In this document: positions 27,122 through 45,007 of the stretch, in pieces
Position numbering within the stretch: the stretch's first letter is position 1
How the letters are laid out: each line of letters starts with the position of its first letter
DNA from: Octopus vulgaris
Lineage: Eukaryota
NCBI GenBank assembly: GCA_951406725.2
Contig: OX597825.1
Location: 15,128,001 to 15,192,000 of the forward strand
Direction: 5' to 3'
DNA length: 64,000 bases
Program-made: the position numbers and the translations under genes
The notes under the pieces: generated by a model
What the model was told of the DNA's origin: nothing
The model's database searches: none
Seen by the model: only the letters and a program-made list of their open reading frames with translations

Positions 27122-27335
27122 AAAGTTTATCCAAACAAGAAAATACAAAAGAACACAACAACGCGAGGACGTGGAACAAATATAGTATTATTGGACGCTC
27201 AGGAAAGAAGGGAAGAAGGAGGTTTTAACGTTTCGAGCGGAGCTCTTCGTCGGAAACATAGGAGAAGGAAACATCCCGAGAAGGGAAGACAGAGGAAAAG
27301 AATAGCCAACGGTACACACGAGGTCACATTTTGAA
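27122..27335 (-). mobile_element. Penelope-like pLTR-type fragment carrying a hammerhead-like motif
   Basis: Abuts (TA)n and contains the motif at 27222-27257. The right boundary is uncertain. Confidence 0.55.
27222..27257 (-). ncRNA. Minimal type-I hammerhead ribozyme-like motif (U4C core)
   Basis: GTTT-CCGACGA-A-GAGC-TCC-GCTC-GAAA-CGTT-A-AAAC. Confidence 0.6.
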
Positions 27336-27496
27336 AAAAAAAGCAATCACACTGACACACACAGGTCAAACAGGGTGCTTTGAAACCCAACACGTGACTA
27401 GAGATCGGGATTAGTGGGTTCGATCCTTCGCTGCAGTTACCAGGGTAGTGGCCGTGTACGGTATACAAACCAAATAATAGAAATAATAATAATAAT

Positions 27497-27832
27497 AATG
27501 AAAAGAAACGGATACATTCTCAAAATACAAAGATCAAGAAATCGGGATAATCCGAATGTGGAGACTAAAAACGGAAAATAAATCCCTATAATATTTGGGG
27601 CATTAGATATGATTAAAAAACTTACAGAGAAGTGCATAACCAACACATCAGCACTTACGAATATACAAAACATACAGAAAATATCACTTCTAAACATCGC
27701 CCGCATCCTACGTAAAGCACTTTCGATACACTGAAAATAACAACACCAGAATAAATCACAGCACGTATCCGAGGCACACAGTGCCAGCGCTCGGTGGTTT
27801 TATGACATCACGTAATAAAAATAAGACTACTA
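27497..27832 (+). mobile_element. R4/Dong-clade LINE 3' end (second family)
   Basis: SKYKDQEIGIIRMWRLKTE / IPIIFGALDMIKK...IQKISLLNIARILRKALSI, then a 3' UTR running into (TAA)n. Triplet arrays on both sides. Confidence 0.85.
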
Positions 27833-28190
27833 AATAATAACAATGATGATAATAATATTAATAATAATAATAATAATAATAATAATAATAATAATAATAA
27901 TAATAATAATAATAAGAAGAAGAAGAAGAAGAAGAATGATAATAATAATAATAATAATAATAATAATAATAATAATAATAATAATAATGATGATGATGAT
28001 GATGATGATGATGATGATGATGATGATGATGATGATGATAATAATAATAGTGATGATGATGATGATAATAATAATAATTATAGAAGAGGAAGACAAAGAA
28101 GAAATTGAAGAAGAAGTAGTTGAGAAGTAGAAGATGACGAAGAAGAAGAAGAAGAAGAAGAAGAAGAAGAAGAAGAAGAAGAAGAAGAAG
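27833..28190. repeat. (TAA)n/(GAT)n/(GAA)n compound array
   Basis: Directly visible. Confidence 0.95.
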
Positions 28191-28194
28191 GTTT

Positions 28195-28424
28195 TACTAT
28201 AACTGGCGCATTAGGTATGATAAAATGTATTCAGACAAATACGTAACTAAAACATACATATTTTCTGTATATAACATACATAAAATAACACCACTAGGTA
28301 CCACACACGTCCTACGTAAAACACTTTCAATACAGTAAAAGTAACATCACCACAAGAAACCACAACACATATCCAAGGCACTCAGTGGTGCAGAGAAAAC
28401 ACCTGATAAAAATAAAACTACTGA
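28195..28424 (+). mobile_element. R4/Dong-clade LINE 3' end, paralog of 27497-27832
   Basis: ITGALGMIK...LGTTHVLRKTLSIQ*, with a 3' UTR ending ATAAAAATAAAACTACTGAA, followed by (TAG)n. Confidence 0.8.
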
Positions 28425-29627
28425 ATAGTAGTAGTAGTAGCAGTAGTAGTAGTAGTAGTAGTAGTAGTAGTAGTAGTAGTAGTAGTAGTAGTAGTAGTAG
28501 TAGTAGTAGTAATGATAATAATAAACGGAAAACGTGTCATTCCCTGCTTTATATGACGTGCGCGAGCTTCATAAAAATGCCTTAAAATACCTCATTTTAT
28601 CCTAAAACTATATTTGAAAGAGATATTTAGTAGAAACACATACACTACTGCATACATACACGAAGACATATATTTATGCATATTTCTAAAGAGGTATTGT
28701 GATGTATAGTCTCTATGTAATGTTGTATATTTCTTTTATTATTATTATGAAACAAATTTATAACTATTTTGAATATTAGATATTCAACGTGACATAGACG
28801 ATGAAAAGAAGTCACGGATGAAGGTGTAAACATGTTGAGATATGGAGCACGTTAAATTGAAAAGAAAGTTAGTATTACGGAGATGGAGTGTATCATTACA
28901 AAACAAAAGACGTTAACAAAAGTAGGCGGCCATTGTGTTCCGCAAGGAGAACAAACTTTCCTGTCAGCATAATAGTCTAACAGGAGACATCAAATCTATT
29001 GAAACCAATATCTTGAAGACTTTACATTGTGTTCTTGTAGGTTTGCAAGGAAAGGAGCTTAGCTTTTCTTTCTTTAGCAAATAGTAATCATGTTTCTCGT
29101 GAATAGACGAAGTGTAATTTTTACAATGATTTTGGGAACAAACAATGGTAATTTTCATCTCTACATACAACATACAATGACAGTTACTATTATGAAGAAT
29201 CTTAGTTTCAAGGAAAAAAGGTGTGTTAATATTTGAGTAGCTTCCTTAGTGTCCTTATCCAAGAAAAGGACACTTTATTTTTGAAGCTGTCATACGCTCC
29301 TCCTTGGAATTTCACACAATGCAGCTGTGACAAGAATCAGTCAGTAAATATTAGGCCGAATGTGTTTCCTAAATCTATTTGAGTCTATGAAAAAGAAAAT
29401 AAACACTAAAACTTCTGCAGCTTTCATTGTACTAACTATATATTTGCCTTAGGCTTTTCTGATTAATTATGGAATTTGATTTGAACGGGTGTACTATACC
29501 ACATGAATGCAATATCATACACGGAAACTGACTGATATGTATATATATACATATAGATACACATACATATACATTTATATACGTATATATATATATATAT
29601 ATATATATATATATATATATATATATA

Positions 29628-29930
29628 TAATAAAAATATTAGGGAATAAATCCAAAATTACAGGGAAAAATCAGATTTAGGATTAAATCCAATTTTATAG
29701 TAAAATATTATATAATATTAATTCGAGACAAAACCACTATTTTGCAAATCAAACAAGGAAAGACTTAATCAATACATAAAAAATTTTAATATAAAGTAAA
29801 TAAAGTAAATAAATAAATAAATAAATAAATAAATAAATATTTACTTTATATTAAAATTTTTTATGTATTGATTAAGTCTTTCCTTGTTTGATTTGCAAAA
29901 TAGTGGTTTTGTCTCGAATTAATATTATAT
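29628..29930. repeat. (TA)n-embedded element with a perfect 93-bp inverted repeat
   Basis: Arms 29710-29802 and 29838-29930 are exact reverse complements with a 35-bp (AAAT)n spacer. A related single arm lies at about 63875-63950. Confidence 0.9.
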
Positions 29931-42278: not shown

Positions 42279-42402
42279 TATATATATGCATGTTTGTATG
42301 TATATGAGTGAAACTGCTTCAGAAGGATAAATGCGACCCTTTAAAATATTAATTCATGTTCACTCATAATGCTTAAACACTTTGGATTATTAAAAGAATT
42401 TA

Positions 42403-42560
42403 CGTCTTCCCCTTCTAAGTTCAAATTCCGCTAAGGTGGACATTGAAATTAATCATTTCTTGGTCGTTAAAATATGTACCAATCGATAACTAGGATTGAT
42501 GTAATCAACTTATCCACATCCCACGAAATTGCTGGCGTGGTGCATAAATTTGAAACCAAT
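42403..42560 (+). mobile_element. Old Meta-domain SINE fragment
   Basis: TTCTAAGTTCAAATTCCGCTAAGGTGGAC...GGTCGTTAAAATATGTACCA...GATGTAATCAACTTA, degenerate, with a different 3' end. Confidence 0.55.
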
Positions 42561-43246
42561 GTTAAGACCTTTTTTTTATGAAAAATAAAATGAAGTATTG
42601 AATATTCAGTACGCTTTCTTCTTAACTCCTACGGTAGCTGAATACAATAAGCAAACGTTCTATCTAACACTTAAAAGATATATTTACTGTAGCAATTTCT
42701 CATTTTCTGTGATGTTTTGGTGAGATTATTACAACATATCAATATGAAACAATAGGTTAAGACATGCTTATATTGTACTAGGCTATCATTTAATATTATT
42801 GATTCGGATGTTCAAATCATTTTTCTGTATTTATGTTTCGTCATAGCAAAATATATTAAGAACATATTTGTCATAAACGGAATAGATTTATTGCTACATA
42901 TTACAAACGTATTTTATATATATTCATAATTTTACTCTAGCTTTATTCGGCATTAATTACACGATGAATTTTTGTAACGCTCATTTCATTAAAAGTCAAT
43001 TTTGCTCTATTTATCAGACAGCAAAATGATCTTAATATCTGTATAATGTACAAGTTGCATACAATTATTAACCTATACTTCAATAGTAAAGGAAAAATAT
43101 TATGTATCCGAAAACAGATGTAGATGCTTATACAAGACAGAGCGTGTGAGTCATACAAAGCACACGGACGCATAGTATTTGTGTTTGTGCGTGTGTATGT
43201 GTGTGTGTTGTCTATGTATTCAGTATGTATATGTGTGTATATGTAT

Positions 43247-43640
43247 AGGAGCAGGCATGGCTGTGCGGTAAGAAGCGTCCTCCCAGCTACACGCTTGTGG
43301 TTTCCCTTCCACTAAATAGCATCTTGGGAAATTGTCTACTATTGTTTTGGGAAATTGTCTTGGGAAATTGTCTACTATAAAGCCTTGTCCAGTGGGTATG
43401 ATAGACAGAAACTGAACAGAGCCCCTCGTGTGCGTATATATATATATGTATATATGTACATGTGTGTGTGTTTGTCCTCCATCACCGCTTGACGACTGAT
43501 GTTCATCTCCTGTAACATCGCGGTTCGGCAAAAGAGAACCAGTAGAATAAGTACTAGTCTTACAAAGAATAAGTCCAGGGGATGATTTCTTCAAGTAAAA
43601 CACTTTAAGGCAGTGTTGTAAGATGGTGGCTATTAGATGA
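43247..43640 (+). mobile_element. SINE family B, diverged
   Basis: Head GCAGGCATGGCTGTGCGGTAAG. TTGGGAAATTGTCT is triplicated at about 43324-43375. Confidence 0.8.
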
Positions 43641-44901
43641 GAGGAATATATGAAAGAATATATGTATGTGTGTGCTTGTGTGGGCGTGTGTGTGTGTGTG
43701 TGTGTGTGTGTGTGTGTGTGTGTGTGTGTGTGTGTGTGTGTGAGTGTGTGTGTGTATGACATTTGCGTGCAAAAAAGTCTTCAATATGATCCTCGTTCTA
43801 AACATATCGCTAGAATAATTACTACGAACTGTTTTTACATCTACGTATCATATAGTTTTAAAATCTTTATACCATAGCGAACTAAATTCCGAAATCACGT
43901 TCCTTTTAGTAATGTTGATCTCATCAGTACCATAAATTAGTCTAGAGAAATAGTTCAAGGTAGATTAAAATTTCTCAGCTACATATTAAGTATCTTATAA
44001 ACCTGAAAGCATGTAACTTTATGCTAAATCTAAATATAACCTAAATAGATTATTTAGCAGTTAGACTGATTCATCTCAAAACATGAAAATACATGGCAAT
44101 CTTTTATTTGTGTATGGGTTTGTTGCGTTCAGAAAACCTATGTAATCATCATTTCATTCAAAGACGACAGAGCAGGTTTTGCATGGACTCAACTGTTAAA
44201 TTTGCTGCCGTCGTTAGAATAATCATTATGCTCAATTCAACGTATAGGAAAAACGAAAAATAAAGAGCAACATTCATTCGTGAAAGGACGGATGATTTTC
44301 TGTTTTCACACATTTTCCTTAAATAACAGGGCATTTATAAGCGTTGATACATCTGCAATAAGTCTAATGGCATTGTATGTAGTTACACAGAAACGCAAAG
44401 ATATACGTACACATACTCGCACGCACGCACACGCTCGGGCTTGTATATATATATATATATATATATATATATATATACAGAGAGAGAGAGAGAGAGAGAT
44501 TCAGATGGTATTTAAGTTGATACACCAGAATTTAGTACTGGAGTGAGACAGCATTTTCCTTGTCTATCTTCTTAACTTCTTGGAGATCTTAGGTATAATT
44601 ATACCAAATGTGTCCATCTGTTCTAATTTAATTAAAAACTATGTCTCTGTGCAGCTGAAGATTGCTCCGCATTTTAAATTAATGTAATGATTGCATTGTT
44701 CAATTAAATGGTGTTGAATGAAACGATCGTACTGCATTAGCTCTGGATATCCTTGTTGCATATTTTGATTATATATATATATATATATATATATATATAT
44801 ATATATATTTCTATATATATAAACAACTTTGCATTAATCTTAGGGGATACGCTATATATTTGTAGAGTACAGGTTTATTGTTGAAGAATAATATTGCTGA
44901 A

Positions 44902-44944
44902 TAGTGACTTCGAAGTTTCGGCTAGTTAAGCCGCCGTCCGACTA
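44902..44944 (-). ncRNA. Hammerhead-like motif (GUC site, degenerate core)
   Basis: TAGT-CGGACGG-C-GGCT-TAACT-AGCC-GAAA-CTTCGAAG-TC-ACTA. Lies in a ~190-bp insert between (TA)n and (GA)n. Confidence 0.6.
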
Positions 44945-45007
44945 CAGTTCAATCATGACTTACTTCGAAGTCCCTAGTCAGCTATATTCTTGATTTAGAA
45001 TATGTTT

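Follow-up and report, generated by a model that had tools for sequence, protein, structure and literature searches.

Minimal type I hammerheads are found in the pLTRs of Penelope-like elements (PLEs; Cervera and de la Pena 2014, PMC4209133), and the portions of that article compared here describe an architecture and a TA bias like those at our locus. Specifically, they share an unpaired base between positions 9 and 10.1, a palindromic or absent stem III, a short stem I, and a U3-A8 core (family 4 of S. mansoni has UUGAAAA, as does family F2 below), with mainly solitary truncated copies and opposite-strand pairs 100–700 bp apart. The same portions of its text and supplement rows differ in lacking the majority U4C state and the A6U family described below, and Octopus is absent from one of its supplement files. 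Hydra-clade PLEs, including Hydra-1_Obim (Craig et al. 2021, PMC8557442), combine a CxCX5C linker and (TA)n targets with inverted 5′-truncated arms, additional bases flanking stem II on either side, and a stem III of the type ACTC-N-GAGT or ACTT-N-AAGT, all of which recur here. Neptune and Nematis PLEs have a C-terminal GIY-YIG endonuclease with a CCHH motif, a CX2-5CxxC linker, and ORF-flanking pLTRs; their counterparts here, placed in the clade by motifs, differ in their long, CA-rich or AT-rich 3′ UTRs (1.2–3 kb). Metazoan non-LTR retrozymes are non-coding tandem units of 150–450 bp with low GC content and a type I hammerhead (PMC7229834; bioRxiv 10.64898/2026.07.22.740005); they are highly self-paired and related to PLEs.

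The window analysed here is a stretch of 64,000 nt of Octopus vulgaris DNA (contig OX597825.1), in which an earlier note had described five hammerhead-type motifs in unrelated inserts. The motifs are present at the positions claimed (27222 −, 38877 +, 39241 +, 40387 −, and 44902 −), their 7-nt cores read CCGACGA, TTGAAAA, CCGATGA, CTGAAAA, and CGGACGG as reported, and the inserts are indeed mutually dissimilar (best cross-family E 0.4) and located beside TA or GA tracts. The number five is an undercount, since a sixth motif (core 38871–38865, −) lies in the left arm of insert 2, which is inverted. The interpretation as minimal type I hammerhead folds of several TA-targeting, Penelope-related families is right. 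The inserts at 27222, 38877, 39241, and 44902 (families F1, F2, F3, and F5) are, however, 5′-truncated 3′ ends of protein-coding PLEs; the proposal that all five inserts are non-autonomous holds for insert 4 (F4) only, as the other four continue into PLE ORFs. We consider it very probable that four inserts are truncated PLE 3′ ends with a hammerhead fold, and that the fifth is a 448-nt non-coding unit likely copied in trans. This reading draws on observed copy numbers, the structure of the ends, linkage to ORFs, circular permutation, and core states.

Every insert belongs to a multicopy family, as judged by both BLAST and exact pattern matches (8,163 for F1, 991 for F2, 3,298 for F3, 348 for F4, and 159 for F5; 0 for the reversed-pattern controls of all five), so that the objection of single-copy sequence fails. 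The 3′ ends of the families are fixed and in most cases lie at (TA)n: (TA)4 is found at the 3′ end in 26/30 F1, 20/30 F2, 25/30 F3, and 12/28 F4 loci, against a background of 5%. For F5, the boundary of which is the analyst's choice, (TA)4 adjoins the 3′ end at 1/30 loci and lies within 60 nt at 9/30. Inverted arms occur at 10/30 F2, 19/30 F3, 15/28 F4, and 12/30 F5 loci and at 0/30 F1 loci; 5′ truncation, fixed 3′ ends (sometimes followed by a tail), and inverted 5′-truncated arms are PLE traits, of which F1 shows all except the inverted arms. F1, F2, F3, and F5 could each be traced to a GIY-YIG and RT ORF, some of them degraded, and thus do not qualify as non-coding tandem units of the retrozyme kind. 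At the family level, F1, F3, F4, and F5 have the features by which we define the minimal type I fold (C3-G8 or U3-A8, G5, A6, A9, GAAA, NUH, stems I and II, and a palindromic stem III), with C at position 4 in F1 and F3; stems and core are thus kept in these four families, but the stems of F2 are weak. The sequence of stem I varies between families with its pairing retained, while the core and the stem III palindrome persist. The window copies of the F3, F4, and F5 hammerheads are damaged.

The F1 insert (27122..27335, −) is part of a pLTR, the 5′-truncated 3′ end of a Neptune/Nematis-type PLE, and ends at (TA)n. Its minimal type I hammerhead (27222..27257, −) comprises the core CCGACGA, a 4-bp stem II, a palindromic ACGT, the unpaired A, U at H17, and a stem I of 3 bp, which is extended to 4 bp in most copies. 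U4C is the majority core state of the family (22/30 copies). At one locus (L246), an endonuclease and a 1.9-kb UTR are linked to F1. The F1 motif lies downstream of 4 of 11 endonuclease relatives and a close variant downstream of 2, while no F1 motif was found in the roughly 3.5 kb examined at the other 5. In each of four intact elements of a sister subfamily, picked for their long frames (1,008–1,009 aa), a sister CCGACGA hammerhead is present in both flanking repeats, 6.17–6.20 kb apart; the U4C families thus include intact elements. The CCHH endonuclease pattern and the CX2-5CxxC linker can be read in an F1 frame (L288), and a Pfam search with the 1,008-aa frame returned sub-threshold matches only. 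The 5′ ends of F1 copies vary, but many cluster near one site.

Insert 2 consists of two F2 arms. The right arm (38875..39018, +) is the 3′ end of a Neptune/Nematis-type PLE and carries the motif at 38880–38917, and the left arm (38722..38871, −) is inverted and 5′-truncated, with its own TTGAAAA motif at 38871–38865. The motif has the core TTGAAAA (U3-A8), a palindromic AGCGCT, and weak stems. The 4-bp stem I at 38877 depends on a base and a spacer that are private to the window copy; in the family fold, the proximal stem I has 2 bp and stem II has a mismatched C.A pair at its base. Judged from sequence, this weak fold may be non-catalytic. One F2 locus (L182) contains a 602-aa RT and GIY-YIG frame (Pfam RVT_1, E 1.6e-11; GIY-YIG, 7.9e-6) that ends ~1.2 kb upstream of the motif; its linker reads CX4CxxC, in agreement with CX2-5CxxC, and its endonuclease has the CCHH motif. 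The 3′ region after the frame is 89% identical to that of a second locus. At a further locus (L181), the copy is 5′-truncated and no parent ORF lies upstream.

Insert 3, taken previously as one element, is actually composed of two unrelated elements that meet head to head, with no TA spacer between them. F3a (39077..39238, −) belongs to a sixth family with a hammerhead, of which this copy retains a 3′ tail that stops short of the hammerhead, and F3 (39238..39322, +) is the 3′ end of a Hydra-type PLE. The F3 hammerhead (39249–39286) has the core CCGATGA, in which U4C is shared by 23/25 copies, a stem III of ACTC-A-GAGT, and a stem II that is broken in the window copy; in stems I and III it nearly equals the published hammerhead of Hydra-2_aMil. 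F5 (44822..44944, −) likewise derives from the 3′ end of a Hydra-type PLE, is old and decayed, and has a hammerhead at 44902–44944, the 10-nt palindrome ACTTCGAAGT, and a short inverted arm (44962..44991, +; self-match of 30 nt, 87%). Its core has decayed in the window copy: CGGACGG, proposed as a variant core, occurs in 0 of the 14 F5 records retained, 16/30 having been left out as truncated. All cores in the hammerhead table of PMC8557442 start with CTGA, whereas that of F3 starts with CCGA and that of F5 likely did; the F3 and F5 motifs have 0 matches in the supplement of the same paper. An RT in degraded form lies upstream of F3 (L183), together with a CxCX5C linker and an endonuclease, and the 3′ UTR of this locus is common to another locus (L184), a 5′-truncated copy with no parent ORF upstream. 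F5 likewise follows a degraded ORF with CxCX5C (L248), and its motif follows the same UTR at 10/15 loci. A further 5′-truncated locus (L247) showed no parent ORF upstream. The two Hydra-type frames gave zero Pfam matches. Both families combine the linker with (TA)n and a 3′ hammerhead, with a weak TA signal for F5. The Neptune/Nematis-type and Hydra-type labels are putative, being assigned by linker motifs instead of a tree, with Neptune and Nematis left unseparated.

F4 is the sole non-autonomous insert of the five and, judged by its sequence, appears retrozyme-like. The insert (40263..40484, −) is part of a circularly permuted, non-coding unit of 448 nt with a hammerhead at 40385–40448, accompanied by a short inverted arm that contains the tail only and ends at (TA)n (40488..40552, +). 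F4 motifs on the same strand are spaced 448 nt, the arms span the unit junction and reach up to 1,232 nt, and no common non-unit 5′ flank is present among 111 F4 flanks. The unit is a short head-to-tail sequence without an ORF, carries a type I hammerhead, has a GC content of 33%, and is predicted to be highly self-paired as a circle (64% paired, z −4.2). F4 thus resembles PLE-related retrozymes in composition and in a length at the upper end of their published range, but it differs in that it occurs mostly as dispersed partial or 1–3-unit two-armed (TA)n insertions (two-armed at 18/25 distinct sites) instead of long arrays. The family core is the textbook CTGAAGA. The CTGAAAA thought to be a variant core is a G8A change private to the window copy, as 25 of the 28 F4 records with a visible core have CTGAnGA and 0 have CTGAAAA. 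F4 is likely copied in trans by a PLE enzyme. Nearby PLE ORFs (L125, L142, and L222) were rejected as parents, since each is either oriented toward the F4 insertion or broken up by it; the ORF of L142 additionally has its own hammerhead.

Because sets of top BLAST copies are biased toward the window variants, core states were recounted on position-ordered pattern matches. Of the five supposed variant cores, CTGAAAA and CGGACGG are decay of individual copies, while U3-A8 is published and U4C falls within the published CYGANGA descriptor; that a strict search would miss all the motifs is true of CUGAnGA applied to the window copies, but not in general. In a sister family, A6U is found in 14,944 matches versus 158, and N7 takes all four bases. 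These states bear on a reading compatible with the element identities above, in which the inherited folds are catalytically dead or dispensable, being an RNA structure read by PLE protein or passengers near the 3′ end. The U4C majorities, also in intact elements, and the A6U excess agree with it, as do the lowered activity of U4C and the low activity of A6C in vitro (PMC3088659) and the finding that catalytic mutants of an Anolis PLE leave insertion in vitro unaffected (PMC11167929). On the other hand, N7 is free in the A6U family while the rest of the pattern is fixed over ~15,000 matches (the search pattern itself held C3, G5, G8, A9, and GAAA fixed), stems covary between families, and viroid hammerheads with U4C remain functional in vivo (PMC3088659). 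We regard this reading as rather unlikely.

Two further readings concern the elements themselves. Chance folding in AT-rich repeats gains some credit from the window-wide counts. A relaxed descriptor, loose enough to admit the cores reported earlier, found 12 motifs, against a mean of 9.75 (max 16) over 20 shuffles, and three sites are at chance level: 27222 and 38877 score 11 and 12, and 39241 was missed because stem II is broken in the window copy. A first descriptor, which omitted the unpaired base, found zero motifs. No Rfam hammerhead was present in targeted scans or among the 150 of 240 whole-window matches listed; microsatellite miRNA matches dominated the latter scan. The shuffle check thus leaves the total unremarkable, with only two sites standing out (40387 and 44902 score 20 and 19, where 100 shuffles give 0.04 each at ≥19), and support for the hammerheads comes from the families. 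There, the motifs occur at the 3′ ends of PLEs as well as in both pLTRs, are nearly identical to published Hydra hammerheads, and have stems that covary across families, which refutes chance for F1, F3, F4, and F5, leaves it thinkable only for F2, and makes it scarcely credible overall. The first proposal, that each of the five inserts is an independent non-autonomous hammerhead retroelement, suits F4 and the short, non-coding nature of most copies, and the clustered 5′ ends of F1 make a short SINE-like F1 master derived from a PLE thinkable. The proposal is nevertheless largely refuted, and very improbable, since F1, F2, F3, and F5 can be followed upstream through shared 3′ UTRs to PLE ORFs, their 5′ ends vary, and no head-to-tail units were noticed at their loci.

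For the preferred reading, truncated PLE 3′ ends plus one unit copied in trans, we infer the following cycle. The GIY-YIG endonuclease of the element would nick (TA)n, and its RT would initiate at one or two fixed positions downstream of the hammerhead; synthesis would in most cases end after 100–300 nt and frequently leave behind a second arm in inverted orientation. The high density of motifs would follow from the position of the hammerhead ~40–200 nt from the 3′ end, so that most stubs carry one. Two hammerheads in RNA of full length are predicted to pair through the palindromic stem III and cut, possibly aided by the element's own protein. RNA of the 448-nt unit would be cut and ligated into a circle, and copying round the circle would yield inserts longer than a unit. 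Priming by TA microhomology was dropped from this scheme, since in PMC11167929 initiation takes place at internal sites that lack homology. A bolder proposal, speculative and on balance improbable, is that several successful PLE lineages in two clades have fixed core substitutions (U4C in at least five families; A6U in ~15,000 copies) with the fold and a freely varying N7 kept, that their hammerheads act with protein assistance or structurally and follow core rules of their own, and that mixed two-armed inserts arise from two RNAs, likewise carrying the 448-nt retrozyme.

Most of this is known biology: hammerhead families, hitherto unlisted, that belong to known PLE clades, and one more retrozyme-like unit. 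The families also form a natural allelic series of near-identical RNAs whose cores read CUGA, CCGA, or CUGU and for which copy numbers and intact parents are available, so that ribozyme activity could be compared directly with transposition success, which addresses the role of PLE hammerheads. Two-armed insertions of mixed family, of which the window contains one, provide a genomic test for two RNA templates in PLE integration; if this is true, one integration event would use two separate RNAs, and the 448-nt retrozyme would be carried likewise.

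The five hammerhead motifs are present in the window, with their 7-nt cores, as the earlier note read them, at 27222 (minus strand, family F1), 38877 (plus, F2), 39241 (plus, F3), 40387 (minus, F4) and 44902 (minus, F5), and comparison of the inserts with each other bears out their lack of mutual similarity. Evidence for the motifs from the window alone is thin. A relaxed descriptor allowing two core mismatches gives 12 window matches, near the shuffled count (mean 9.75, maximum 16, 20 shuffles); only at the F4 and F5 sites does the score exceed chance (0.04 per shuffle over 100 shuffles), and the F3 copy fails the descriptor. 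The reality of the motifs is therefore decided by family-level evidence. Microsatellites are abundant in the window, and no host gene is evident among its ORFs of at least 100 aa. The window also contains a SINE-like repeat of 183–217 bp in 2–3 tandem copies (16057-16424, 33861-34342, 48793-49345 and 61895-62332) and minus-strand fragments resembling a LINE ORF end, read from translations (27470-27800 and 47624-47938).

All five inserts are multicopy, each with at least 39 further scored matches in the 2.8-Gb genome. Exact patterns match 8,163 (F1), 991 (F2), 3,298 (F3), 348 (F4) and 159 (F5) times genome-wide, and the reversed control patterns match nowhere. The 3′ ends are fixed in every family. 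In locus sets that count the window copy and some sites twice, two F4 loci being left unoriented, (TA)4 adjoins the 3′ end in 26/30, 20/30, 25/30, 12/28 and 1/30 loci of F1 to F5, respectively (background 5%), and inverted arms occur in 0/30, 10/30, 19/30, 15/28 and 12/30.

Core states were counted in position-ordered samples of pattern matches. F1 reads CCGACGA in 22/30 copies, CTGACGA in 5/30 and single decays in 3/30, and the diagnostic base of a second F1 subfamily is present in 4/5 CTGA copies. F2 reads TTGAAAA in 25/25, the last five bases being fixed by the search pattern; its fold has a 2-bp proximal stem I and a C.A mismatch at the base of stem II. F3 reads CCGAYGA in 23/25 (5/30 left out as truncated), and the stem II form of the window copy occurs in 0/25. 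F4 reads CTGAnGA in 25/28. Among the 14 F5 copies kept (16/30 left out), CCGA, CTGA and CCAA occur three times each and other cores five times; the tie between CTGA and CCAA points to a CCGA ancestor that may since have decayed at its CpG. Since CTGAAAA (0/28 in F4) and CGGACGG (0 in F5) are missing from the family samples, these two window cores represent decay of single copies. CCGA cores also occur in F3a, a sixth hammerhead-bearing family, and in another Hydra-type family.

Four of the families are tied to Penelope-like element (PLE) ORFs upstream, so the earlier reading of non-autonomous retroelements is retained for F4 only. Clades were assigned from linker motifs, as defined in PMC8557442, and not from a tree. 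For F2, a 602-aa RT and GIY-YIG frame with a CX4CxxC linker and a CCHH pattern ends ~1.2 kb upstream of the motif at L182, whose 3′ region is 89% alike to that of L181. In L183 (F3), a degraded RT with a CxCX5C linker and an endonuclease precedes a 3′ UTR that also occurs in L184. For F5, the ORF at L248 is degraded and has the CxCX5C linker; its UTR forms a repeat family, with the F5 motif coming next in 10/15 loci. For F1, L246 carries a GIY-YIG end and a 1.9-kb CA-rich UTR; among 11 relatives of this endonuclease, the F1 motif lies downstream in four, a variant in two and neither in five, within the stretch fetched. Four loci picked for frame length have frames of 1,008–1,009 aa, an endonuclease 70% identical to that of L246 and, on either side, flanking repeats that each carry a sister CCGACGA hammerhead. 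Pfam support for the L288 and L183 frames is sub-threshold or absent. L183 (G000:C10:103162000-103171900, minus strand) lies between exons of what is presumably a 3-methyladenine DNA glycosylase gene.

Loci L288–L291 (e.g. G000:C8:23386500-23393500) are intact-looking PLEs: their frames measure 1,008–1,009 aa, their CA-rich 3′ UTRs are ~3 kb long, and the flanking repeats (pLTRs) on both sides contain hammerheads. Identical endonuclease scores across many such copies suggest a recent burst. In F2 subfamilies (L292–L316), sequence varies downstream of the predicted cleavage site, and by eye a distal helix with upstream sequence seems kept (CTTAG/CTAAG in some), possibly an extended stem I. A Poseidon-like element (L063:1765-1810) has a canonical hammerhead core adjoining its ORF, and several other loci hold ACTC-N-GAGT hammerhead families with covarying stem I.

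A sister family of F1, found outside the window (e.g. L018, L025, L142 and L185), has the core CTGTNGA (A6U) in 14,944 exact matches versus 158 with A6. Within the 100 matches listed, every base is represented at N7. Stem I is CTTT/AAAG versus GTTT/AAAC in F1, and in one case (L185) the copy follows a PLE ORF.

The F4 tail leads back into sequence upstream of its own hammerhead, defining a 448-nt unit. All F4-matching pieces (30 pattern matches, 25 distinct sites) map, circularly permuted, to this circle; the arm exceeds one unit in six records, reaching 1,232 nt, 18/25 distinct sites are two-armed, and no non-unit 5′ flank is common to different sites. The predicted fold of the circle has a z of −4.2 (60 shuffles). 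F4 thus matches non-LTR retrozymes as described in parts of PMC7229834 and bioRxiv 10.64898/2026.07.22.740005. Its stem III type resembles that of Hydra hammerheads, a hint from sequence to its possible mobiliser.

The earlier observation is partly confirmed and its interpretation partly supported. The families add to kinds already known, namely the hammerheads of PLE pLTRs and, in one case, a retrozyme-like unit. PMC4209133 already describes PLE hammerheads with an unpaired base 9/10.1, palindromic stem III, opposite-strand pairs and U3-A8, including the UUGAAAA core of F2. U4C is already on record from natural hammerheads (PMC3088659, in part), and CYGANGA is a descriptor in use (PMC13481778, in part). 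The PMC8557442 supplement tabulates Hydra hammerheads that have ACTC-N-GAGT and additional bases beside stem II; it also lists a Hydra element of octopus that prefers TA, and it contains none of the F1–F5 motifs. An octopus repeat annotation reports recently active PLEs, and 'hammerhead' and 'ribozyme' do not occur in its main text (PMC13282606). Neither natural A6U nor a cephalopod retrozyme turned up in the literature searched, which included part of PMC7151607 but not Lunse et al. 2017, where such core variants would most probably be recorded.

Going by other PLEs (PMC11167929, in part), the endonuclease would nick AT-rich DNA and RT would start at fixed internal sites that set the tail; stubs may arise from early RT termination and an inverted second arm. 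Insert 3 (39077-39322) joins arms of F3 and F3a (tail 39077-39238, minus strand) head to head, with microsatellite at its outer ends only. Two further mixed-family junctions (L030:2081-2244 and L071:1341-1671) were found, versus 112 same-family locus records (duplicates counted), and all three lack a TA spacer and overlap by 0–5 nt. On one reading, two RNAs entered a single integration; on the other, a nested insertion was followed by deletion.

Cleavage by minimal hammerheads probably takes place in dimers and is slow in vitro (parts of PMC4209133 and PMC6765202). In the sole reconstituted PLE, cleavage is protein-assisted and insertion proceeds without it (PMC11167929, in part), and for this reason we give some weight to the doubtful reading that the folds are non-catalytic passengers or structures read by protein. 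Somewhat less probable still, and tentative, is the broader picture, in which several PLE lineages with fixed core substitutions (U4C, A6U) would carry protein-assisted or structural hammerheads with core rules of their own, and in which mixed-family two-armed insertions would reflect two RNAs per integration, a route that may also account for the carriage of F4.
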